From contig ONVK01000030.1 of the NCBI GenBank assembly GCA_900321255.1, positions 848-64,847 of the forward strand: DNA of 64,000 bases, given 5' to 3'. Positions 504-12,474 of the stretch are shown one piece after another (within the stretch, counting starts at the first letter, position 1; each line of letters begins with the position of its first letter). Below the pieces are notes generated by a model. That model was not told the origin of the DNA and did not search any database. It saw nothing but the letters and a program-made list of their open reading frames with translations. This DNA is from an uncultured Lentisphaerota bacterium (lineage in GTDB: Bacteria; Verrucomicrobiota; Kiritimatiellia; RFP12; UBA1067). The position numbers and the translations under genes are program-made.

Positions 504-2147
504 TCAGGCCTTTGCCTTGTCTCCGCCGAAGCGGTCGGCGTCCTTGATGGACGGCGCGGTCTCGGAGAACTCGAAGTCCTTGCCGGGGAGGATGGCGTTC
601 AGGACAATGCCCATGAGCGCTCCGACGGCGAGCCCGGAGAGCGATATCTTGAGCGACCCTACGGTGAACGCGATCGCACCCGCCTTCGAGAACGAGATGC
701 CGAGCGTGAGGACGAGGATGAGGGCGGCGATGAGCATGTTGCGGCTCTTTCCGAGGTCTACCTGGCTCTCGACGAGGTTCCTCACGCCCACGGCGGAGAT
801 CATCCCGTAGAGGATGAACGAGACGCCGCCGATCGTCGCGCCGGGGATCGTGCCGATGAAGGCCGAGAACTTCGGGCAGAACGATACGAGGATCGCGAGG
901 CAGGCGGCGATGCGGATGACGCGGGGATCGTAGACCTTCGAGAGCGAGAGGACGCCAGTGTTCTCGCCGTACGTAGTGTTGGCGGGAGCGCCGAAGAGCG
1001 AGGCAAGGCAGGTTGCGAGGCCGTCGCCCAGCATCGTGCGGTGGAGGCCCGGGTTCTCGAAGAAGTTGCGCTTCACGGTCGAGGAGATCGCCGAGACGTC
1101 GCCGACGTGCTCCATGATCGTCGCGAACGCAAGCGGGAAGACGATAAGAATCGCGCTCGTGATCCTGCCCCAGTCCGGGCTCGAGAGGATCGGGAACACC
1201 GTGTTCCCCATCTTGACGGGGAGGCCGATCCACGCTGCGGAGGCAACGCCGGAATAGTCGATCGACTGGCTGAGGCCGAGCTTGCCGAGGATTACCGCGG
1301 CAATGTATGAGAATATGACGCCCATGAGGATCGGGATGATCCTGAACATGCCGCGGGCGAATATCGAGAACCCTATCACGGTCGCTATCGCGACGAGGGC
1401 GACGGGCCAGTCTGTCGTGCAGCTGTTGATCGCGACGGGAGCGAGTACGAGGCCGATGCCGATGATGATCGGACCCGTCACGACGGGCGGGAAGAACTTC
1501 ATCACGGTCTTGACGCCGCAGGCCTTGACGAACCCGGCTACCACAAAGTAGAGGAGCGACGACGACGCGACGCCGAGACAGGCGTACTGGAGCATCTTCG
1601 TCTTGTCGCAGTCCTCGAAGCCGGCCGCGCCTGCCATCCCGGCGAGCGCAAAGTATCCGGCGAGGTAGGCGAACGACGAGCCGAGGAACGCCGGGACGAT
1701 GCGCTTCGTGAGGAGATGGAAGAGGAGCGTGCCGAGGCCCGCCCAGAGAAGCGTTGCGCTCGGGGAGAGGCCGGTGAGGATCGGCACGAGGATCGTCGCG
1801 CCGAACATCGCGAACATGTGCTGAACGCCGAGCACCGCCATCTTCGGGATGCCGAGCGTGCGGGCGTCGTAGACCGCCTCGCCGGCCCTGTACTTGTCGC
1901 GCAGACGGGCGATGGCATGCGCAAGCGCCGCCGATTCGTCGGGCGTGACGACGCCGTCTTCGGCAATCGAGACCAGGAGCTTTTCGAAAAGCGCGAGGTC
2001 GTTGTCCTTCGCCGCAAACGGATGGACGAGGCCTATGAGCGCCTTCGTCTCGTCTATGTCGGCCTTTCCGTCCGCGAACGTGAACTTCTCCGCAGCCGTA
2101 AGGAGCTGCGAAATCATCCAGGAACTGTCATTCTGTCGTGTAGCCAT
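504..2147 (-). CDS. uraA: NCS2-family uracil permease (UraA/PyrP type) with an extra ~85-aa N-terminal module
   Basis: From ORF 504..2246. Start moved to ATG 2147 (MATRQ..., preceded by AAGGAAA) because the upstream 33 codons overlap apt. UraA hallmarks are present: QHMFAMFGATILVP, IMEHVGD, NTTYGENTGV. The N-terminal extension carries DGKADIDE...EDGVVTPDES. Confidence 0.85.
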   Translation of the reverse strand: MATRQNDSSWMISQLLTAAEKFTFADGKADIDETKALIGLVHPFAAKDNDLALFEKLLVSIAEDGVVTPDESAALAHAIARLRDKYRAGEAVYDARTLGIPKMAVLGVQHMFAMFGATILVPILTGLSPSATLLWAGLGTLLFHLLTKRIVPAFLGSSFAYLAGYFALAGMAGAAGFEDCDKTKMLQYACLGVASSSLLYFVVAGFVKACGVKTVMKFFPPVVTGPIIIGIGLVLAPVAINSCTTDWPVALVAIATVIGFSIFARGMFRIIPILMGVIFSYIAAVILGKLGLSQSIDYSGVASAAWIGLPVKMGNTVFPILSSPDWGRITSAILIVFPLAFATIMEHVGDVSAISSTVKRNFFENPGLHRTMLGDGLATCLASLFGAPANTTYGENTGVLSLSKVYDPRVIRIAACLAILVSFCPKFSAFIGTIPGATIGGVSFILYGMISAVGVRNLVESQVDLGKSRNMLIAALILVLTLGISFSKAGAIAFTVGSLKISLSGLAVGALMGIVLNAILPGKDFEFSETAPSIKDADRFGGDKAKA

Positions 2148-2178
2148 TGTCGTTTCCTTAGTTAGTTTCGTTGGCAAG

Positions 2179-2949
2179 TCATTTTCCGGGGTACTTGAGG
2201 AGAGTGGCGACGTCGTAGCCCTTGAGAAGCCCGGCCCTCGCGCCAAAGCCCTCGAGCTCGATCGGGAAGATCATCTTGACGACCGTGCCTCCGAGACGCT
2301 CGACAAGCCGCGCCGCGGCGGCAGCCGTGCCGCCCGTCGCGAGCAGGTCGTCTACGATCACGGCCTTCTCCCCGCGGATCACGGCGTCGGCGTGCATGTG
2401 CAGCGTCGCCTTCCCGTATTCGAGGTCGTAGTCCTCCGAGATCGTGCGGCGCGGAAGCTTCCCGGGCTTGCGGATCGGCACAAACGCCTTTCCGAAGCGC
2501 GCGGCGATGGCCGCGCCGAAGATGAAGCCGCGGGATTCCGGCGCCGCGACAAGGTCGAAGCTGACGCCCTCCAGCGCCTCGGCGATCTCGGACAGCGCGA
2601 GGTTGAAGCCCTCGCCGGACTCGAGTATCCCCGTCACGTCGCGGAAAAGCACCCCCGGCTTCGGGAAGTCGGGTATCTCGCGGACGTAGTCGGCGAGACG
2701 CGGACGGCCCGAGAGGAGCTTGTCCATCAGACGCGCGATCTGGAACGACTCCTCGTCCGTCACGACCCCGTCCTGCCTGACGCGCTGCAGGAGCGCTTCG
2801 AGCTCGCAGGCCCCGGGCTCGCCCTTCAGGACGAACGGCCGGATCGTCCTCAGTATCACGGAAGTCTCGCCGAGCGTCACGCGCCCGTCGTACATCACCG
2901 CCGTCCGCAGCGAATCGAGGATCTTGAGCAGTCTGTAGTCGCCGACCAT
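2179..2949 (-). CDS. apt: adenine phosphoribosyltransferase with an extra ~80-aa N-terminal module
   Basis: Apt motifs IPDFPKPGVLFRDVTGI, APESRGFIFGAAIA and VIVDDLLATGGTA (PRPP loop). The N-terminus carries DGRVTLGE...QDGVVTDEES. An internal Met (MDKLLSGRPRLADYVREIPDF) would give a canonical-length Apt, so use of the long form is not proven. Confidence 0.85.
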   Translation of the reverse strand: MVGDYRLLKILDSLRTAVMYDGRVTLGETSVILRTIRPFVLKGEPGACELEALLQRVRQDGVVTDEESFQIARLMDKLLSGRPRLADYVREIPDFPKPGVLFRDVTGILESGEGFNLALSEIAEALEGVSFDLVAAPESRGFIFGAAIAARFGKAFVPIRKPGKLPRRTISEDYDLEYGKATLHMHADAVIRGEKAVIVDDLLATGGTAAAAARLVERLGGTVVKMIFPIELEGFGARAGLLKGYDVATLLKYPGK

Positions 2950-2959
2950 CCCATCCTCC

Positions 2960-4636
2960 CTACATCATTGCGTACTTGGCGATGAAAAGAGCCGTCAGGA
3001 TGTACATGATCCAGTGGATGCGGCTGAACTTGCCGGCAAGCGCGTTTATGACCGTGTACGAGATGACGCCGAACATGATGCCCTCCGAGATCGAATAGGT
3101 GAACGGCATCGCCACGATCGTGAGGAAGGCCGGAACCGCCTCTCCCGCGTCGCGCCAGTCGATGTCGGCGCAGGACGATAGCATCAGATAGCCGACGATG
3201 ATGAGCGCCGGAGCCGTCGCAAAGCCCGGGACCGCGAGGAAGATCGGAGCGAAGAGTATCGCGAGCGCGAAGAGCGCGGCGGAAGTGACTGCGGTGAGGC
3301 CCGTCTTGCCGCCGGCCGCAACGCCGGACGCAGACTCGACATATGTCGTCGTCGTGGAAGTGCCGAAGACGGCTCCCACAGATGTCGCGATGGCGTCGGC
3401 GCAGAGCGCCCCCGAAATGCGCGGGAGCTTGCCCTCCTTCGTGAGGAAGCCACCCTTCATCGAGACGCCGATGAGCGTGCCGAGCGTGTCGAAGAGGTCC
3501 ACGAAGAAGAACGCGAACATCACGACGAAGAAGTCGAGCGACTTGGCGAGCGCCCAGCCGGAACCGACGACCTCGCCCTTCACGGTGTGCGTCCAGTGCT
3601 CGGGCGAGAAGAGCGCGCCGATGGTCGAGCCGAACTCCCTGAACGCGCCGGCGATGTCGCTGACCGCGAAGCTCGGATAGGTCGAGAAGAACTTCGCCTC
3701 GGCGTTCGGCACGTAGAGCCCCGTCGCCTCGGCGACCATGCCGAGGACCCAAGTCGCGAAGATGCCGAGCAGAATGGCGCCCTTGAACCCCTTCACGAGC
3801 ATGAAGCCCGTCAGGACCGTGCCGACGAGCGCGAGAATCGCCGTCACGCCCTGCGTATGGAAACTCCCGGCATCCCTGAAGCTGACGAGCGAAACGAGCG
3901 TCGCGTCGCTGTTCACGATCACCTTCGCCGTCTGCAGCGCGATAAAGCATATGAAAAGGCCTATTCCGGCCGCCACCGCGCGCTTGAGCGTGATCGGTAT
4001 CGAGTTGAATATGCTTTCCCGAACGGGCGTCAGCGAAAGCGCGAGGAATACAAGGCCCTCCACGAACACCGCGAGAAGAGCAAACTGCCAGCTGTAGCCC
4101 ATGCCGAGCACGACGCCGAACGTGAGGAACGCGTTGAGTCCCATGCCCGGAGCGAGGACGAACGGATAGTTCGACATGAACGCCATGAGGAGCGTTCCGA
4201 CGACAGCCGCCACGGCCGTCGCCATGAAGACGCCGCCTCGCGGAATGCCGGCGACGGACAGGATGTTGGGGTTGACGGCGAGGATGTACGCCATCGTCAT
4301 GAACGTCGTGATGCCGGCCGCGACCTCGACCTTGACCGTCGTCCTGTTTCTCTTGAGCTTGAAGACCCTGCCGAGGAAGGTCGTCTCGGGTTCTTCGCTC
4401 TCGGCCTCGCGCGTAAGCCACTTGAGGTGGGCGCCGATGCGCACCGACTCCTCTGGCGTCACGACGCCGTCTTCAAGGACGTCCTCGAGCGCCTTCACGA
4501 ACTCGGCCATCTCCGCGCTCTTCTCGGCGCGCTCCTTGGCGTAGGCGAGGAGGATTACCGCCTCGGCGCGGTCTACCTTGCCGTCTTCGAGAATCGTCTT
4601 CTCGAGTTTGCGTATCGATTCCTTGATGTCGTTCAT
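2960..4636 (-). CDS. NCS2 AzgA/PurP-type adenine/guanine/hypoxanthine permease with an extra ~95-aa N-terminal module
   Basis: AzgA-family motifs AAGITTFMTMAYILAVNPNIL and TSTTTTYVESASGV, plus many TM helices. The N-terminus carries EDGKVDRAE...EDGVVTPEES. There is no alternative start codon between the module and the transporter core. Confidence 0.85.
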   Translation of the reverse strand: MNDIKESIRKLEKTILEDGKVDRAEAVILLAYAKERAEKSAEMAEFVKALEDVLEDGVVTPEESVRIGAHLKWLTREAESEEPETTFLGRVFKLKRNRTTVKVEVAAGITTFMTMAYILAVNPNILSVAGIPRGGVFMATAVAAVVGTLLMAFMSNYPFVLAPGMGLNAFLTFGVVLGMGYSWQFALLAVFVEGLVFLALSLTPVRESIFNSIPITLKRAVAAGIGLFICFIALQTAKVIVNSDATLVSLVSFRDAGSFHTQGVTAILALVGTVLTGFMLVKGFKGAILLGIFATWVLGMVAEATGLYVPNAEAKFFSTYPSFAVSDIAGAFREFGSTIGALFSPEHWTHTVKGEVVGSGWALAKSLDFFVVMFAFFFVDLFDTLGTLIGVSMKGGFLTKEGKLPRISGALCADAIATSVGAVFGTSTTTTYVESASGVAAGGKTGLTAVTSAALFALAILFAPIFLAVPGFATAPALIIVGYLMLSSCADIDWRDAGEAVPAFLTIVAMPFTYSISEGIMFGVISYTVINALAGKFSRIHWIMYILTALFIAKYAMM

Positions 4637-4665: not shown

Positions 4666-4959
4666 CTAGATGATGTTGAGTATGTCGGAAAAGCCCGTTA
4701 TGTCGAACACTTCCTTGACGGAGGGCTGGACGCCTGCGATCTGGAGCGTTCCGCCCTTCGCCATCATCGTCTTGTGGGCGGTGAGCATGAGCCTAAGCCC
4801 CGCCGAGCTCATGTACGGCACATCCGCAAGATCGATGACGACTTTCGTCGCGTCGCCGAACTTGAGCCCTGCCTCGAGTTCCGGCGCGGTTACGGTATCA
4901 ACGCGTCCGCTGACGGAAATGGTCAGCGTGCTTCCCTCTGTGTTAGTTTTTATCTCCAT
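4666..4959 (-). CDS. STAS-domain anti-sigma-factor antagonist (SpoIIAA/RsbV-like)
   Basis: 97 aa. LTISVSGRVDTVTAPELE...DLADVPYMSSAGLRLML contains the conserved phosphorylatable Ser context (SSAGL). It overlaps the upstream phosphatase/kinase gene by 17 nt. Confidence 0.85.
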   Translation of the reverse strand: MEIKTNTEGSTLTISVSGRVDTVTAPELEAGLKFGDATKVVIDLADVPYMSSAGLRLMLTAHKTMMAKGGTLQIAGVQPSVKEVFDITGFSDILNII

Positions 4960-6976
4960 ATTCTTTTCCCATTGTAAGTATGTTCCTGTCGTTGTTCCGC
5001 CTGTAGGTGACAGGCGACATCGTCTTCTTGACGATCAAGATTCCAAGCCCGCCGACCTCGCGGTCATCGGCGCAGAGCGTCGTGTCGGGGTCGCGGTGCG
5101 CAAGCGGATCGAACGGCTTGCCGTTGTCCGTTATGACGAGGCGCACGCCGTCCGGATGGCGGGTTCGCTCCACCGTAAGCGTCCAGTCCGTCGCGCCAGA
5201 ATAGCGCACGATGTTCGCGAATATCTCGTCCGCCGCGACCATCATGATGTTCGAGCAGTCGTCCGGCACGCCCTCAAGCGCCTTCGCGAGGTCGGCGGAC
5301 GCCTTCGAGAGGTCTTCCATCGTCGGCCTGTACTCGCCGGTGAACGTCGCGGGCTCGCCGCGGTAGCGCATGACGAGCTGCGTGCAGTCGTCCGCCTGCT
5401 CCGCGCCGGCGGCATGGCGGCGAACGTCCTCTATCACGGCCGACAGAAGTTCGCCGCGCCTCCCGGAGCAGCCTGACACGGTCTTGAGGAGCTGGTCGTC
5501 TCCGTATAGCTCTCCAGCCGCGTTGTGCTGCTCGACGATCCCGTCGGTGTAGAGGTATATCGCGTCGCCCGGCTCAAGCTGCAGCTCCTGCACGCGGTAG
5601 CGCACGCCCGCCATCGCGCCGAGAACGAGCGAGGGCCTGGACCTGAGGTATTCGACTTTTCCGCCGAGTCTGACGATCGGAGGATTGTGCCCTGCGTTCA
5701 CATACGACACGTGTCCCGTGCGGATGTTCAGCTCGCCGGCCCAGGCAGTCACGAAAGTGTTGGAGGTATTCCCCTCGCAAAGGGCATCGTTCGCCTCCTC
5801 GATGACCTGTTCGATCGGTTTCCCCGTCTGCGCGGCGCTCTTTATCTGCGCCTTCGCCCTCATCATGAACATCGCGGCCGGGACGCCCTTCCCGCTCACG
5901 TCCGCAACGAGGAACAGCACGCGGTCAGGCCCGGTGAAGTAGAAGTCGTAGAAGTCTCCGCCGACTTCCCTCGCCGTGTCCATCGACGCCCAGATGTCGA
6001 AACTCGTCTCGTCGGGGAACGGGGGAAACACGTTGGGGATCGCCGCCAGCTGTATGTCCGTCGCCATCTTGAGCTCCTTCGCGGTCTGGAGCTTGATCTG
6101 GTTGCGGACGAAGGATGAGATCACGAATCCGACGAGAAGCGCGACGAACACGAGCGCCGCGCCGTTCAACACGGCGGTCGCGCCTACAAGGACGTCGCGC
6201 TGCACAGCTGCGGAGTCCTTGGGGATCATGATGTACGTCGGAAAGCCCTCGATTTCCTTGCGCTTCCAGTAGAAAGAGCTGTCGGGATCCTCCCAGTGCG
6301 CACCCTCGCGGTTCGGCTCCTCGTAGTCGGAGAGAATTAGCCCGGACATCGTAGTCACCACTATTCCGCCATTCCCGCCGACGCGCCAGTTGCGGAAGAG
6401 GTCCATGAGCGAGGAGCGCGACAGGCCGCGGAGCGACTCGCCGTCGCAGCCGATTTCCACGAAGCCGCCTGTCGACGGCATCCAGACCCCGATGAACTTG
6501 CGCCACGCGCCGTTCGCGGTGTTCGAGCGGTACGGCTGGCAGTATTCGGTGTCCGGTCCGGTGACGAGGCACATCATGTCCTCGGCCTGGCCGCCCGCCG
6601 TCTTGAAGTTGAAGGCCGGCCGGTCGGCGGAGGCGAGGTAGTCGGTCACCGACGAGGCAACGATGTCTCCATTCGTGTCGGCGACGCTGATCTCCGTGAC
6701 GTGAAGCTCCCTGGCGAGCGCCTGAAGCGACGCAGTGTCCACGGGATAGCCGTCCTCCTCTATCCGCTCGCGAACAGCCATGCACTGCAGGACAAGCCTT
6801 TCCTCTACGCAGTCCGACATCTCGTCCTCGACGTTCTCGAACGTGCGGTCGATCAGCTTGTACGCGTCGCGCTCCGAGAGCCGCGAGTGGAGGAACCACG
6901 TGAACGCCATCGACAGCAGGAACGCCGCGAAGACGCTCAGCACAAGCTTAAGGTTGAGGCTGCGGCGCTGCGTCAT
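4943..6976 (-). CDS. membrane sensor: periplasmic Cache-like domain + PP2C/SpoIIE phosphatase + C-terminal RsbW/SpoIIAB-like kinase (HATPase) domain
   Basis: N-terminal TM, a periplasmic domain and a second TM. SpoIIE motifs EVGGDFYDF, LVADVSGKGVPAAMFM, TDGIVE. C-terminal HATPase motifs ADEIFANIVRYS, VRLVITDNGKPFDP, VGGLGILIVKK. Confidence 0.85.
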   Translation of the reverse strand: MTQRRSLNLKLVLSVFAAFLLSMAFTWFLHSRLSERDAYKLIDRTFENVEDEMSDCVEERLVLQCMAVRERIEEDGYPVDTASLQALARELHVTEISVADTNGDIVASSVTDYLASADRPAFNFKTAGGQAEDMMCLVTGPDTEYCQPYRSNTANGAWRKFIGVWMPSTGGFVEIGCDGESLRGLSRSSLMDLFRNWRVGGNGGIVVTTMSGLILSDYEEPNREGAHWEDPDSSFYWKRKEIEGFPTYIMIPKDSAAVQRDVLVGATAVLNGAALVFVALLVGFVISSFVRNQIKLQTAKELKMATDIQLAAIPNVFPPFPDETSFDIWASMDTAREVGGDFYDFYFTGPDRVLFLVADVSGKGVPAAMFMMRAKAQIKSAAQTGKPIEQVIEEANDALCEGNTSNTFVTAWAGELNIRTGHVSYVNAGHNPPIVRLGGKVEYLRSRPSLVLGAMAGVRYRVQELQLEPGDAIYLYTDGIVEQHNAAGELYGDDQLLKTVSGCSGRRGELLSAVIEDVRRHAAGAEQADDCTQLVMRYRGEPATFTGEYRPTMEDLSKASADLAKALEGVPDDCSNIMMVAADEIFANIVRYSGATDWTLTVERTRHPDGVRLVITDNGKPFDPLAHRDPDTTLCADDREVGGLGILIVKKTMSPVTYRRNNDRNILTMGKEYGDKN

Positions 6977-7686
6977 TTCGCCCCTCCTTCCGCTATGACG
7001 GCATTGGCCGCCGCAAGCACGTCGGGGCGACGCTTGTCAACCGCGACCCCGTAGAACTCGCGCGTCTGCAGAGGCGAGACAGCGAGCTTCCCTCCGGACG
7101 CCTCGGCAAGTGTCGTCAGCTGTACGCCGTCGAAGAGCACCGCGTCGACCTCGTCCCTCCTGAGCGCAGCGATGGCGTCCTGGATGCGGATATAGCGCTT
7201 GGGGTCGCATCCGTGCAGGCAGAGGTAGACGTCGTGAGCAGAATCGGACTCGATGCCGATGCGGATGGCGTTGAGCTGCGACATGCGGGGCTTCTTTCCG
7301 TCCGTCCTGTACAGGAAGCGCGCACCGCCCTCCCCATAGGGTTCGGAGAAGTCGATGTCGCGGCGCCGCGCCTCGGTCATCGTGATGGTCGCGATGGAGA
7401 AATCGGCGGTGCCGGCCTTGAGACGCGGCAGGATCTCGATGAAATCGACGCCTTCCATGACCATCTTGCGGCCCATCTTCGCGGCGATCTTCCGCGCGAA
7501 CTCGACGTCCGTACCGACGATTTCGCCGGCCTCGTTCCTGTAGCAGCACGGCGGCTCGGTCGGGTTCGCGAGAAAGAGAAGCGGACGCGACATGTCGGTG
7601 ACGCGCGGATCGACCGTTTCCCGCCTGTCCTTGTCGGAACAGCCGGCGAACACGGCGAGCGCGAGCAGCATGCATAGTCGTTTCAT
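6973..7686 (-). CDS. lipoprotein, family-3 solute-binding protein (amino-acid-binding type)
   Basis: Lipobox LAVFAGC. SBP_bac_3-like IVGTDVEFARKIAAKMG...DFSIATITMTEARR..DFSEPY. It has 4-nt overlaps with both neighbours. Confidence 0.8.
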   Translation of the reverse strand: MKRLCMLLALAVFAGCSDKDRRETVDPRVTDMSRPLLFLANPTEPPCCYRNEAGEIVGTDVEFARKIAAKMGRKMVMEGVDFIEILPRLKAGTADFSIATITMTEARRRDIDFSEPYGEGGARFLYRTDGKKPRMSQLNAIRIGIESDSAHDVYLCLHGCDPKRYIRIQDAIAALRRDEVDAVLFDGVQLTTLAEASGGKLAVSPLQTREFYGVAVDKRRPDVLAAANAVIAEGGAK

Positions 7687-9432: not shown

Positions 9433-11091
9433 TCATCCGTTGTATCGTACGATCAGCTGCGTGCAGTCGTCCGCCTGCTCCACAAGCCCGCCGTACGCGA
9501 CGACAGCGTGGAAGACGGCGCGCAGCAGAGGCGACGAACCGCCTTCGACAGCCGCGACGCCGTTCGAGAGCATCGACTCAAGCGAGAAGCGCAGCCTCTC
9601 CTCGCCGAACAGGTCTCCGCGCTCGTCGGGTTGCTCTGTGATTCCGTCCGTGTAGAGGTAGATCGCCTCGCCGGGACGGAGCGTCAGCTCGTGCGACTTG
9701 TACGTGATCCCCTCCATCGCGCCGAGCATCAGGCCCGACCTGTCGCGGACGAACTCCGGCGCGGAGCCGGACGAAGTCCGGATCGGCGGGTTGTGCCCCG
9801 CGTTCACGAAGGTGACGACGCCAGTCGTCAGGTTCAGCTCGCCAAGCCACGCCGTGACGAACATGTTCGCGTCGTTGTCGCGGCTCAGCGCGTCGTTCGC
9901 CCTCTCGGCGACCTCGGCGAGCGGAAGCCCCGTCTGGGCGATCCCCTTGATCGTGGTCTTCGCGCGCATCATGTACAGCGCCGCGGGAACGCCCTTCCCG
10001 CTGACGTCCGCAATCATGAACATGAACCTGTCGGAGGTGATGAAGTAGAAGTCGTAGAAGTCGCCGCCTATGTCGCGCGCCGCCTGCATCGTCGCCACGA
10101 TGTCCATCCTCGTCTCGTCGGGGAAAGGCGGGAAGACGCGCGGAATCGCGCTCTCCTGGATGTTCGTGGCCATCTCCATCTCGTGCTTGCGCTGGGCGGC
10201 GAGCTGGTCGCGCACGTAGTGCGCGATCACGAGCCCCACGAGGATCGCCGCGAGTATCAGGGCCATTCCGTTCAGGAACGCGGAGGTCGCCACAAGGACC
10301 CGCCTCTCGACGACCGCCGTCCTCTTCGGAATCACGACGTATACGGGGAAGCCCTCGAACATGCGCTTCTCCCAGTAGTTATCCTCGCCGGGGTCGCGCC
10401 ACTGCCCGCCCTCCTGCCCCGCAACTGGATGGGAGATGATCGTCCCGTTGTCGGTCGTTATGAAGATGCCACCCTCGTCTCCGCTCACGTGCCAGCCGTG
10501 CGTGAGGCCGGTGAGGGCGGAGCGCGCAAGGTTGCGGAGGGCCTTCTCCCGTGCGCCGACGAGCACAAATCCGCCTTCGGGCATCCAGACCCCGACGTAC
10601 TTGATCTTCTCGCCGCGGAGCGTGCTCGGAAGAGGCGGCTGCGCAAGCTCGAACCCTTCCGTCAGAAGCGACGCAAACTCGTGCGCCTGGCCCTCGGCCG
10701 TGTTGAAGTTCAGCGCCCCGACCTCTTCGCGTCGCGCACTGTGGGAGAGATTTCCGTCCGCATCCGCTATGCATATCTCGTCCACCCCGAGTTCGTCCGC
10801 GAGCGCGCGGAGGCGCCTGCTCGACTCGTCAGGGTCGTTCCACCACGGCTGCCCCTGCATCTCGTAGACTTTGTCGCGCACCACCATCGCCTGGCGGAAC
10901 ATGCGCGCGTCCACGCGCTCGCGTATATCCACCGCCACGTCGCTGAACACATTGTCGATGAGGTGCTTCGTGTCGCGCCATGTAAGCTGCTCGTGAAGCA
11001 TCCACGTAAGCACGAGCGAGGCGACGAACGCAAGCGCAACGGCGCCGACGAGACGCCGCGCGAGCTTGCGCTGTGCAGTTCCCATCACCAT
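9433..11091 (-). CDS. membrane sensor: periplasmic Cache-like domain + PP2C/SpoIIE phosphatase (paralogue of 4943..6976 without the kinase domain)
   Basis: DIGGDFYDF, MIADVSGKGVPAALYM, TDGITE. The periplasmic domain aligns with its paralogue (YVGVWMPEGGFVLVG vs FIGVWMPSTGGFVEIG). An alternative ATG lies at 11085. Confidence 0.85.
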   Translation of the reverse strand: MVMGTAQRKLARRLVGAVALAFVASLVLTWMLHEQLTWRDTKHLIDNVFSDVAVDIRERVDARMFRQAMVVRDKVYEMQGQPWWNDPDESSRRLRALADELGVDEICIADADGNLSHSARREEVGALNFNTAEGQAHEFASLLTEGFELAQPPLPSTLRGEKIKYVGVWMPEGGFVLVGAREKALRNLARSALTGLTHGWHVSGDEGGIFITTDNGTIISHPVAGQEGGQWRDPGEDNYWEKRMFEGFPVYVVIPKRTAVVERRVLVATSAFLNGMALILAAILVGLVIAHYVRDQLAAQRKHEMEMATNIQESAIPRVFPPFPDETRMDIVATMQAARDIGGDFYDFYFITSDRFMFMIADVSGKGVPAALYMMRAKTTIKGIAQTGLPLAEVAERANDALSRDNDANMFVTAWLGELNLTTGVVTFVNAGHNPPIRTSSGSAPEFVRDRSGLMLGAMEGITYKSHELTLRPGEAIYLYTDGITEQPDERGDLFGEERLRFSLESMLSNGVAAVEGGSSPLLRAVFHAVVAYGGLVEQADDCTQLIVRYNG

Positions 11092-11831
11092 CTGCGCCGC
11101 CTCCTCTTGCCGGCCGTTATCACCATGTCGAGCGCCTTCTTGAGCCGCGTGTCGCCCTTGCGCACGGCTATGCCGAAGTTCTCGCGCGTCTCGAGGCGGG
11201 ACGCGGCGAATTCGCCGTTCGAGTTCTCCGCGTCTATGCGAACCGCGCAGCTGTCGAAGAACATCGCGTCGAGCCGCTTCGCCTTGAGGTCATCCATCGC
11301 ATCGACGTAGGAGCCGTAGCGGACGGGATCGAGCCCATGCGAGGTCAGGTAGAAGTCGTAGGTCGACGCATCCATCGTGCCGATGCGCATCTTCTCGGCG
11401 CGGATCATCGTCGGCATCTCCTCTCCCGCGCGGTAGAGGAACATCCCTCCCTCCGTCGCGTAGGGAACCGTGAAGTCCACGGTCTGCAGCCTGCCCTCAG
11501 TGATCGTTATGCCGGACGCGGCCATATCGGCCTCCCCTGCGCTTACCATGGTCAGCAGGTTCGGGAACTTCTCCTTGCGTATCTCGAGCTTGCACCCAAG
11601 CTTTGCCGCCGCCGCGCGCGCGATGTCTATTTCCAGACCGACTATCTCGCCCGTCTCGTCGTCGCAGTAGGAATACGGGCGGGTGTCAGTCGTGGTGACG
11701 AGCAAAAGCACGTTGTTCGTGCGGGCGGGAGGAGGAGGCGGCGCGTCAGCGTCGCGCCCGCTGCATCCGGCGGAAAGCATCGCGGCGAGAACGAGCGCCG
11801 CAGCCGACAGTGTATAGACTCCTCCCCTCAT
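11085..11831 (-). CDS. lipoprotein, family-3 solute-binding protein (second copy)
   Basis: Lipobox MLSAGCSG. IVGLEIDIARAAAAKLG...DMAASGITITEGR..DFTVPY. The stop overlaps the start of the downstream PP2C sensor. Confidence 0.8.
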   Translation of the reverse strand: MRGGVYTLSAAALVLAAMLSAGCSGRDADAPPPPPARTNNVLLLVTTTDTRPYSYCDDETGEIVGLEIDIARAAAAKLGCKLEIRKEKFPNLLTMVSAGEADMAASGITITEGRLQTVDFTVPYATEGGMFLYRAGEEMPTMIRAEKMRIGTMDASTYDFYLTSHGLDPVRYGSYVDAMDDLKAKRLDAMFFDSCAVRIDAENSNGEFAASRLETRENFGIAVRKGDTRLKKALDMVITAGKRRRRRW

Positions 11832-11853: not shown

Positions 11854-12474
11854 TCAGAGGGTGCCGAAAATGCGGTCGCCGGCATCGCCAAGACCAGGAA
11901 CGATGTAGAAATGGCTGTTCAGGCGCTCGTCTTTGGCCGCGGTGAACACAGGGACGTCGGGATGCTCCTTCTCGACCTTCGCAATGCCCTCCGGCGCGGC
12001 AATGAGGTTGAGGAAGACGATTCGCCTGTAGCCGAGCTTCTTGAGCTGGGCGAACGCATCGCACGCGCTCCCGCCCGTCGCGAGCATCGGGTCGATCACG
12101 ATCGCGAGCTCGTCGTTCTTCGCCGGCGGAACTTTCGCGTAGTACGGAATCGGCTCGGCCGTCGCCTCGTTGCGCTGCATGCCGAGAACGCCGACCTTCG
12201 CGTACGGAAGGACGTGCAGCATCGCGTCGAGCATGCCCATTCCGGCGCGGAGAATCGGGACGATCACAATGGAGTCCTCGATCTTCACGCCCGTCGTCTT
12301 CGCGACAGGGGTCGTGACCGGGATCTCGACGGTCCGCAGGTCCTTGAGACTCTCGATTGCAAGAAATTCCGTTATCTCGTTTACGAGCTCGCGAAACTGC
12401 TTCGGCTTTGTGTTGATGTCGCGCATAAGCGTGACGCGGTGCTTTACAAGTGGATGGTTCAGGACTGTATGCAT
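11854..12474 (-). CDS. upp: uracil phosphoribosyltransferase
   Basis: 206 aa. ILRAGMGM, VIDPMLATGGS, YIVPGLGDAGDRIFGT. Confidence 0.92.
   Translation of the reverse strand: MHTVLNHPLVKHRVTLMRDINTKPKQFRELVNEITEFLAIESLKDLRTVEIPVTTPVAKTTGVKIEDSIVIVPILRAGMGMLDAMLHVLPYAKVGVLGMQRNEATAEPIPYYAKVPPAKNDELAIVIDPMLATGGSACDAFAQLKKLGYRRIVFLNLIAAPEGIAKVEKEHPDVPVFTAAKDERLNSHFYIVPGLGDAGDRIFGTL

Follow-up and report, generated by a model that had tools for sequence, protein, structure and literature searches.

In the 64,000-nucleotide (nt) stretch of DNA analysed here (hereafter, the window; contig ONVK01000030.1 of an uncultured Lentisphaerota bacterium), three adjacent genes code for a UraA-like uracil permease, for Apt (adenine phosphoribosyltransferase) and for an AzgA/PbuG-like purine permease. 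Their products are canonical salvage proteins, and in front of each stands one copy of an autonomous domain of about 80 amino acids (aa), which we call the module. The genes are the last of five co-directional ones on the minus strand, leading from a sensor with PP2C phosphatase and RsbW-type kinase domains through a STAS gene to the AzgA-like gene, apt and the UraA-like gene, with spacing of 10-31 bp or small overlaps. The three genes and their parts are listed below; for the modules, the E-value of the hidden Markov model (HMM) match and the ratio of nonsynonymous to synonymous substitution rates (dN/dS) are given.

2960-4636, minus strand: AzgA/PbuG-like purine permease, open reading frame (ORF) of 558 aa
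4409..4636, minus strand: its N-terminal module, aa 1-76 (MNDIKESIRKLEKTILEDGKVDRAE...LEDGVVTPEESVRIGAHLKWL), with Shine-Dalgarno site and ATG; HMM E = 3e-44; dN/dS 0.22
2960..4408, minus strand: its acidic linker REAESEEPETT and permease core, with the canonical N-terminus from FLGRVFKLKRNRTT; Pfam Xan_ur_permease E = 1e-31, residues 105-521
2179-2949, minus strand: Apt, ORF of 256 aa, encoded between the two permeases
2710..2949, minus strand: its N-terminal module, aa 1-80, with Shine-Dalgarno site gggagga and ATG; HMM E = 1e-41; dN/dS 0.12
2179..2709, minus strand: its canonical catalytic domain; NCBIfam apt equivalogs E = 3e-61, residues 84-253 on model positions 8-176 of 176
504-2147, minus strand: UraA-like uracil permease, ORF of 547 aa from ATG
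1890..2147, minus strand: its N-terminal module, aa 1-86 (module proper about aa 10-86), with Shine-Dalgarno site taagga and ATG; HMM E = 2e-40; dN/dS 0.27
504..1889, minus strand: its conserved linker AVYDARTLG and NCS2 uracil-permease core; Pfam Xan_ur_permease E = 2e-84, residues 102-487; NCBIfam uracil permease E = 5e-84

The canonical Pfam and NCBIfam family models begin only at residues ~102-104 of the UraA-like protein, 84-85 of Apt and 105 of the AzgA-like protein; therefore, each protein has an extra N-terminal region of about 80-100 aa. These extensions are similar to each other, with BLASTP E = 1e-10 for UraA versus Apt (32% identity, 81 aa), 1e-10 for UraA versus AzgA (39%, 67 aa) and 4e-6 for Apt versus AzgA (34%, 58 aa). 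An HMM built from the three modules, searched against all six reading frames of the 64 kb, matched only these three places (E <= 1e-40), the next best match having E = 1.6. An earlier reading of this DNA from its letters only (the sequence-only reading) had claimed that all three genes start with mutually alignable extensions beyond the canonical family members; both points hold, and the peptides it quoted are exact.

It had also claimed that the conserved segment DGVVT[PD][DE]ES is encoded by different synonymous codons in the three genes, which argued for selection at the protein level. The codon comparison (GAC GGC/GGG GTC GTG/GTC ACG CCA/CCC/GAC GAG/GAC GAG/GAA TCG) agrees with that. The module-coding DNA has 48% nucleotide identity over aligned codons, and only a patch of 27-31 nt at DGVVT..ES reaches 85-87%; at this level of identity we reject a recent DNA duplication as the source of the modules. 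Among orthologues from related genomes, dN/dS of the module was 0.27 for UraA (n = 17), 0.12 for Apt (n = 9) and 0.22 for AzgA (n = 25), the values for the core in the same sets being 0.15, 0.07 and 0.19, respectively. Thus, the module is translated and under purifying selection. The modules fall into subtypes according to the host protein, with 60-77% identity within and 26-35% between the types; hence the fusions are old.

All three long starts are the first ATG behind good Shine-Dalgarno sites (aaagga, gggagga and taagga), whereas no such site was found in front of the internal methionine of Apt (MDKLL). On these grounds and on the low dN/dS of the modules we reject translation from a start downstream of the module, the outcome that the sequence-only reading had named as fatal to its claim. 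Public gene calls give products of the same lengths (256, 558 and 547 aa), annotated as 'adenine phosphoribosyltransferase' and 'uracil permease'. A 580-aa form of the UraA-like ORF starting from TTG, which overlaps apt, is unlikely.

The assignment of the host proteins differs in detail. Apt scores above the equivalog cut-offs over residues 84-253 (NF002636, 206 bits with a cut-off of 125; TIGR01090, 201.6 bits with a cut-off of 185.85). The UraA-like protein belongs to the UraA type of NCS2 permeases by its matches to Xan_ur_permease and to the NCBIfam uracil permease model, which extend over residues 102-520; because its score is under the equivalog cut-offs, its specificity for uracil is presumptive. 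The AzgA-like protein matches Xan_ur_permease but no NCBIfam family, and by its motif RVFKL..(6)..TEV.AG.TTF..M.YI..VNP it may belong to the AzgA/PbuG type (COG2252).

The module, its wider family and its relatives

In the AlphaFold2 (AF2) model of the UraA copy, computed from a 10-sequence alignment, the module is a four-helix unit (predicted local distance difference test score, pLDDT, 84; predicted template modelling score, pTM, 0.71). Its predicted helices span residues 2-16, 24-38, 42-57 and 62-81, forming a helix-loop-helix twice. The conserved turns are situated at the helix junctions, D19-G20...E26 between helices H1 and H2 and D57-G58-V-V-T61...E64 between H3 and H4, so that the two D-G-x-[VI]-[TD]-x-x-E turns are 38 residues apart. 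In an alignment of 42 diverse family segments, no residues other than D19, E26, D57 and E64 are invariant or nearly so. Judging from the model, each turn could alternatively be a helix C-cap (D-G) followed by the N-capping box ([TD]-x-x-E) of the next helix; binding of a metal by the module is possible but not implied.

Our definition of the family asks for a length of about 80 aa with four helices predicted, for two D-G-x-[VI]-x3-E turns at a spacing of 38-45 residues, and for significant similarity to the family profile; all three copies in the window fall under it. A search with profile A1 against 5.8 billion proteins yielded Bacteroidota proteins with tandem modules at E = 8e-9 and 7e-7. 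With profile A2, 1604 clusters (at 50% identity) were found among 1.84 billion representative proteins at E <= 1e-3, 248 of them at E <= 1e-10. Among the new representatives from the best 150 of the 1604 clusters, 94 of 140 carry exactly two modules in tandem.

Several architectures recur. Two modules may be joined to BRCT in proteins of about 300 aa (BRCT was matched in 37 of the 85 proteins scanned), or to a DEDDh exonuclease in proteins of about 450 aa, with or without BRCT (the exonuclease model was matched in 18 of the 85); P0057, P0062 and P0090 are among the examples of these tandem types. Other proteins combine two modules with about 900 aa of uncharacterised sequence, and stand-alone two-module proteins occur as 'hypothetical protein' in Aquiflexum and Cognataquiflexum. 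The BRCT type is found on plasmids and in temperate phages, namely as orf2/kp3 of Vibrio K139/Kappa (AF125163.2, 2200-2955; NC_010275.2, 1847-2602) and in several Pseudomonas phages, where the members are named only 'BRCT domain-containing protein' or are mis-named as NAD-dependent ligase. Five giant proteins of 2000-4000 aa (P0050, P0056, P0063, P0146, P0189) contain 11-16 partial matches to half a module with a period of 98 residues, and may be repeat proteins of its helix-turn-helix unit.

Scans of the isolated modules, of the full proteins and of 85 family members against Pfam and NCBIfam found no model covering the module. Hence the module is not an already annotated domain, which would have undone the sequence-only reading; its family, though large, is without a Pfam or NCBIfam model. 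These scans gave only sub-threshold matches, to TerB, DUF533, EF-hand_5, GA_3 and YmfL. For the window modules there was no match to TerB or EF-hand in the Pfam scan even at E <= 10. Among the 42 wider-family segments, sub-threshold matches were seen to TerB in 12 (E <= 0.1, best 1e-4), to DUF533 in 8 and to EF-hand_5 in 8 (best 1e-5). TerB is thus the commonest such match among the segments; it was also seen in 5 of the 85 full proteins with best E = 7e-6, and nothing reached the gathering score of 24.4 bits of the TerB HMM (PF05099), P0047 for instance having 18 bits.

The second half of the module (aa 49-81 in Apt, aa 37-75 in AzgA, also in P0047, P0070, P0081 and P0082) gave recurrent sub-threshold matches (E = 1e-6 to 0.02) to positions ~90-143, in the C-terminal part, of NCBIfam NF041471, the YmfL family of putative regulators from the e14 prophage.

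The sequence-only reading had compared the double turn to TerB/DjlA-N-type modules or to a pseudo-EF-hand. The resemblance stands at the level of the motif, and the profile and structure comparisons do not carry it further. By hhalign, profile A4 of the module had a probability of 2% both against KP-TerB and against an alignment of 19 TerB sequences, with only 19-20 columns aligned at one DG..E turn, the TerB alignment having an effective number of sequences of 1.5 and hence limited sensitivity; a tandem-module protein had 0.4% against TerB, and the module 6% against calmodulin. Profile searches against PDB sequences gave nothing significant (troponin C, E = 5e-4 as a sum of weak stretches; 2H5N, 0.09; 2OU3, 0.21). 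The best Foldseek matches of the single-module AF2 model in the PDB were generic helical bundles (best E = 0.5), without an EF-hand; for the two AF2 models, of the single module and of a tandem-module protein, the matches were alike only such bundles with a best E of 0.5-0.7, and no TerB-like entry (2JXU, 2H5N, 2OU3) was among the 50 best matches listed. A literature search on TerB-type domain combinations, the Ter system and group translocation revealed nothing relevant.

Like the module, TerB and DUF533 are all-helical accessory domains with two 'DG...E' turns, attached to many unrelated proteins; however, the DG motifs of TerB are about 78 residues apart (in the KP-TerB sequence, validated against 2JXU), compared to 38 in the module. 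An EF-hand pair has, like the module, about 75-80 aa and two helix-loop-helix units, with loops 36 residues apart in calmodulin versus 38 in the module. The module motif D-G-x-[VI]-[TD]-x-x-E corresponds to loop positions 5, 6, 8, 9 and 12, and in the AF2 model loop position 10 is exactly where the exiting helices start. An EF-hand loop has oxygen ligands at positions 1, 3, 5 and 12, whereas the three copies of the window have F/T/A/L/M/R at positions 1 and 3, hydrophobic rather than Asp/Asn, and helix 3 is predicted to run through the would-be loop. Thus, the likeness being confined to the motif, we file the module under neither TerB nor EF-hand.

Fusions and gene order in related genomes

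We recovered 33 genome loci (denoted by L numbers), all from rumen or gut metagenome-assembled genomes (MAGs). About half of them are labelled Kiritimatiellae or Kiritimatiellia, and the rest Verrucomicrobia, Lentisphaerae or uncultured bacterium; one locus (L003, genome RUG12088) is 99-100% identical to the window. In the Kiritimatiellae loci, a single N-terminal module is found on the AzgA-like permease, the UraA-like permease and Apt, and in L008 (3562-5172), L020 and L022 also on a PbuX-like xanthine permease (410 bits). At the C-terminus, the module occurs in these loci on a GlnQ/HisP-type ABC ATPase (L028, 2-559; L029) and, followed by a zinc ribbon, on uracil phosphoribosyltransferase, Upp (P0178/P0196; L037, 7887-8852), the latter on a metagenomic contig that is not placed taxonomically. 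Fusion of the module to proteins of uptake and salvage has occurred repeatedly and independently. Single modules also exist on their own: an ORF of about 85 aa is situated directly downstream of the UraA-like gene in L018 (7674-7958), and P0068 is a stand-alone protein of 121 aa comprising the module and a zinc ribbon.

A zinc ribbon of the form CxxC...CxxC comes after the module in three cases, namely in P0068, in the Upp fusion and in the UraA orthologue of L021 (5881-7692), where it lies between the module and the permease; module and ribbon together look like a mobile unit. The 155-aa fragment P0070, which matched no NCBIfam family, has one module and, behind it, transmembrane segments that may resemble the start of a NupG/XapB-type nucleoside permease. 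One further candidate, P0008, where an Apt-type module runs into GatB-like sequence on a 609-bp ENA contig, was treated as an assembly chimera and not as a real fusion.

Apt occurs both with and without the module. The former group includes L003, L013, L015, L018, L027 and L032-L035, plus the divergent P0185 and P0098. In the latter group (n = 9; L004-L008, L011, L012, L016, L026) Apt begins at the canonical N-terminus; for example, in L004 (5421-5945) it starts with MKNLDNYVKGIPDFPKPG a few bases past the azgA stop codon. In a neighbour-joining tree of Apt cores, midpoint-rooted and of moderate reliability, the proteins without the module group together in one clade that lies within the module-bearing ones, which suggests that the module was lost once, in a single Apt clade. 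The permeases retain the module in all 33 loci, including those with module-less Apt, so the role of the permease module is independent of the module on Apt. Presumably, Apt works without the module in the sister clade, and therefore the module would not be a part of catalysis or transport.

The Apt orthologue of L018 (5060-5950) carries 1.5 modules. Its extra N-terminal half (MNAREKKAFLQILQGLKDFVLADGTVDLDETAAMLGL) closely resembles the start of the module of the PbuX-type permease of L022, and this suggests recombination between module-bearing genes.

Upstream of the three salvage genes, the following genes of the window are relevant.

4666..4959, minus strand: STAS protein of the anti-sigma-antagonist type, its gene ending 29 bp before the AzgA-like one; Pfam STAS E = 1e-17
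4943..6976, minus strand: membrane sensor, PP2C phosphatase (SpoIIE) fused to an RsbW-type kinase (HATPase_c_2); Pfam E = 4e-51 and 1e-17
6973..7686, minus strand: SBP_bac_3 solute-binding protein (SBP) paired with the PP2C sensor, from domain scan and synteny
11854..12474, minus strand: upp, uracil phosphoribosyltransferase; Pfam UPRTase E = 6e-69, residues 4-205 of 206

As UPRTase covers residues 4-205 of its 206 aa, upp of the window is without the module, in agreement with the sequence-only reading. The gene order conserved across the loci is Upp-MatE-SBP-PP2C/RsbW-STAS-AzgA-(Apt)-UraA. A STAS gene directly precedes the AzgA-like gene in about 20 of the 25 loci where this region is visible, among them loci in which the PP2C gene is not its neighbour (L016, L017, L022, L025). 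The STAS protein contains the motif YMSSAGL with a phosphorylatable serine. The neighbours thus comprise the components of a partner-switching system, that is, STAS, a PP2C phosphatase and an RsbW-type kinase, the last two in one protein; no sigma factor or anti-sigma target was found in the operon with these genes. No operon RNA element or riboswitch was seen, as the window has no Rfam or tRNA match, and promoter and terminator scans were at background.

There are two pairs of SBP_bac_3 and membrane-PP2C (SpoIIE) genes on the minus strand, at 4943-7686 and 9433-11831; in the first, the PP2C protein is the one fused to the RsbW-type kinase domain, with the STAS gene after it. L003 extends beyond coordinate 1 of the window. 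There, some 2.1 kb past the UraA-like gene on its downstream side, a second phosphoribosyltransferase of 179 aa with the motif VLVVDDVFDTGKTA and without the module is encoded (8765-9304 of L003), an apparent outer-membrane protein and another exported protein lying in between.

The possible role of the module

The reading that we prefer, with a probability of roughly 45%, is that the module is a shared cytoplasmic handle by which uptake and salvage of bases are controlled. Since the N-termini of permeases of the NCS2 fold are cytoplasmic and Apt is soluble, the module is likely cytoplasmic on all three proteins. It would read one cytoplasmic signal and impose it post-translationally on base uptake and phosphoribosylation together. 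In the permeases, the short linker would tether the module to transmembrane segment 1 of the mobile core (elevator) domain, and therefore a change in what the module binds could gate transport; in Apt, the module would be joined almost directly to the N-terminal helix leading into the active-site hood. The signal might be a partner protein, the best candidate being the upstream phosphorylatable STAS protein with its PP2C/RsbW-type switch, or else the four conserved acidic residues might hold a cation or a small ligand as the signal. Because the wider family usually carries a tandem pair, the mechanism may also involve pairing with a second module. The recurrence of the module on several importers and base-consuming enzymes, including the C-terminus of an ABC ATPase, fits one signal read by all of them; the C-terminus of ABC ATPases is a classical site of regulatory domains (MalK, MetN, OpuCA).

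Several points weigh against a control handle of this kind. The data at hand fit regulation and scaffolding alike, the ligand, the partner and the effect on activity all being putative. Modules persist in L012, L013, L024 and L026 without a STAS gene next to the AzgA-like gene (in L023 none was detected upstream), and in the BRCT and exonuclease architectures they have no STAS neighbour. In the predicted structure, the four acidic residues could be purely structural and need not bind anything. The two modules of a natural tandem protein are packed by AF2 without confidence (pTM 0.50), leaving the pairing structurally unsupported, and the structural and profile searches (PDB, hhalign, Foldseek) gave no match that offers a functional precedent.

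If the modules bind each other, homo- or heterotypically, they could instead tether Apt (and Upp in the unplaced lineage) to the permeases, with the imported bases being phosphoribosylated at the membrane, a physical form of metabolic trapping. A metabolon of this type would be in line with the presence of the module on the permeases and on two different phosphoribosyltransferases, with the tandem pairs of the wider family, which suggest that a pair is the unit, and with the existence of free-standing modules; besides, uptake of uracil and adenine in E. coli depends on the activity of Upp and Apt. The module distances of AzgA and UraA also co-vary beyond the core distances (mirror-tree in 12 genomes, partial r = 0.42, permutation p = 0.023), although this signal is weak and confounded by shared phylogeny. 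By analogy, the module might act as a dockerin does in recruiting enzymes to a scaffold: dockerin, made of EF-hand-like 'F-hand' repeats, is a small module attached to many enzymes, which it docks, but it is extracellular, whereas the module would be cytoplasmic. We nevertheless consider tethering unlikely, as loss of the module from Apt in one clade left the permease modules in place, upp and the second phosphoribosyltransferase near the operon are without it, the module-bearing amino-acid ABC ATPase has no phosphoribosyltransferase partner, and the AF2 models show no confident packing of one module on another. A more elaborate form is likewise doubtful. There, the module as a docking domain would build a membrane-bound salvage complex of permeases and phosphoribosyltransferases, or hand all of them to the upstream phospho-regulated STAS protein, so that uptake and phosphoribosylation are coupled and switched by a cascade without sigma-factor output.

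Equally, each module could be an autonomous sensor that binds a common cytoplasmic ligand, for instance a metabolite related to nucleotides, or Mg2+ or Ca2+ coordinated by the four acidic residues, and allosterically controls its own host without any partner. The near-invariance of just these four residues, the coincidence of the motif with EF-loop positions 5-12 and the recurring sub-threshold matches to EF-hand and TerB/DUF533 are consistent with it, and a generic ligand would suit the many unrelated architectures. Yet the hydrophobic residues at EF-loop ligand positions 1 and 3, the predicted extension of the helices into the would-be loop and the lack of significant similarity to metal-binding families in the hhalign comparisons (TerB, calmodulin) make such a sensor improbable, the more so as the acidic residues are explainable as helix caps.

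A purely structural accessory, serving folding, membrane insertion, stability or oligomerisation of the hosts and carrying no signal, seems quite improbable. All host proteins are oligomers, and purifying selection by itself does not prove regulation; however, the module is attached to membrane and soluble proteins at either terminus, also exists as a free-standing gene, and is dispensable for the function of Apt in the sister clade. Finally, an annotation artefact, with the real starts downstream and the similarity residing in untranslated or recently duplicated DNA, has only the internal methionine of Apt in its favour and is refuted by conservation of the module in 33 MAG loci, by its dN/dS of 0.12-0.27, by the Shine-Dalgarno sites and by 48% nucleotide identity set against protein E-values of 1e-10, so we regard it as extremely improbable.

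Should the module prove to be a common handle for control or docking, it would clearly exemplify how a single dedicated domain can coordinate several nucleobase transporters with the enzymes by which their substrates are trapped. The old question of a physical or allosteric coupling between base uptake and phosphoribosylation would then become directly testable, with the module-less Apt of the sister clade as a natural control. A non-sigma output is also suggested as possible for the PP2C/RsbW/STAS switch conserved in rumen Kiritimatiellae. More generally, the finding draws attention to a domain family that is large, with about 1600 clusters at 50% identity, and has no Pfam or NCBIfam model; members are found in BRCT and exonuclease proteins of phages and bacteria.

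Regulatory accessory domains common to transporters and enzymes are already known; what is new here is a domain family absent from the libraries searched. The module may follow the logic of CBS pairs, of the STAS domain of SulP/SLC26 and of the C-terminal domains of MalK, MetN and OpuCA, by which a small cytoplasmic domain on transporters and enzymes conveys a common signal, though in sequence and predicted fold CBS, STAS and MalK-type regulatory domains are unrelated to the module. SLC26/SulP proteins combine the 7+7 UraA fold with a STAS domain; in the window, STAS is encoded by a gene of its own in front of the AzgA-like gene. Functional links between base permeases and phosphoribosyltransferases are known from uraA-upp and purP-apt in E. 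coli, where the two steps are joined by metabolic trapping, and were the subject of the old 'group translocation' idea. In those systems the genes are adjacent, as they are in the window; to our knowledge, their proteins have neither a common domain nor an established physical complex. The permeases and Apt of the window, unlike these known pairs, share a dedicated module.

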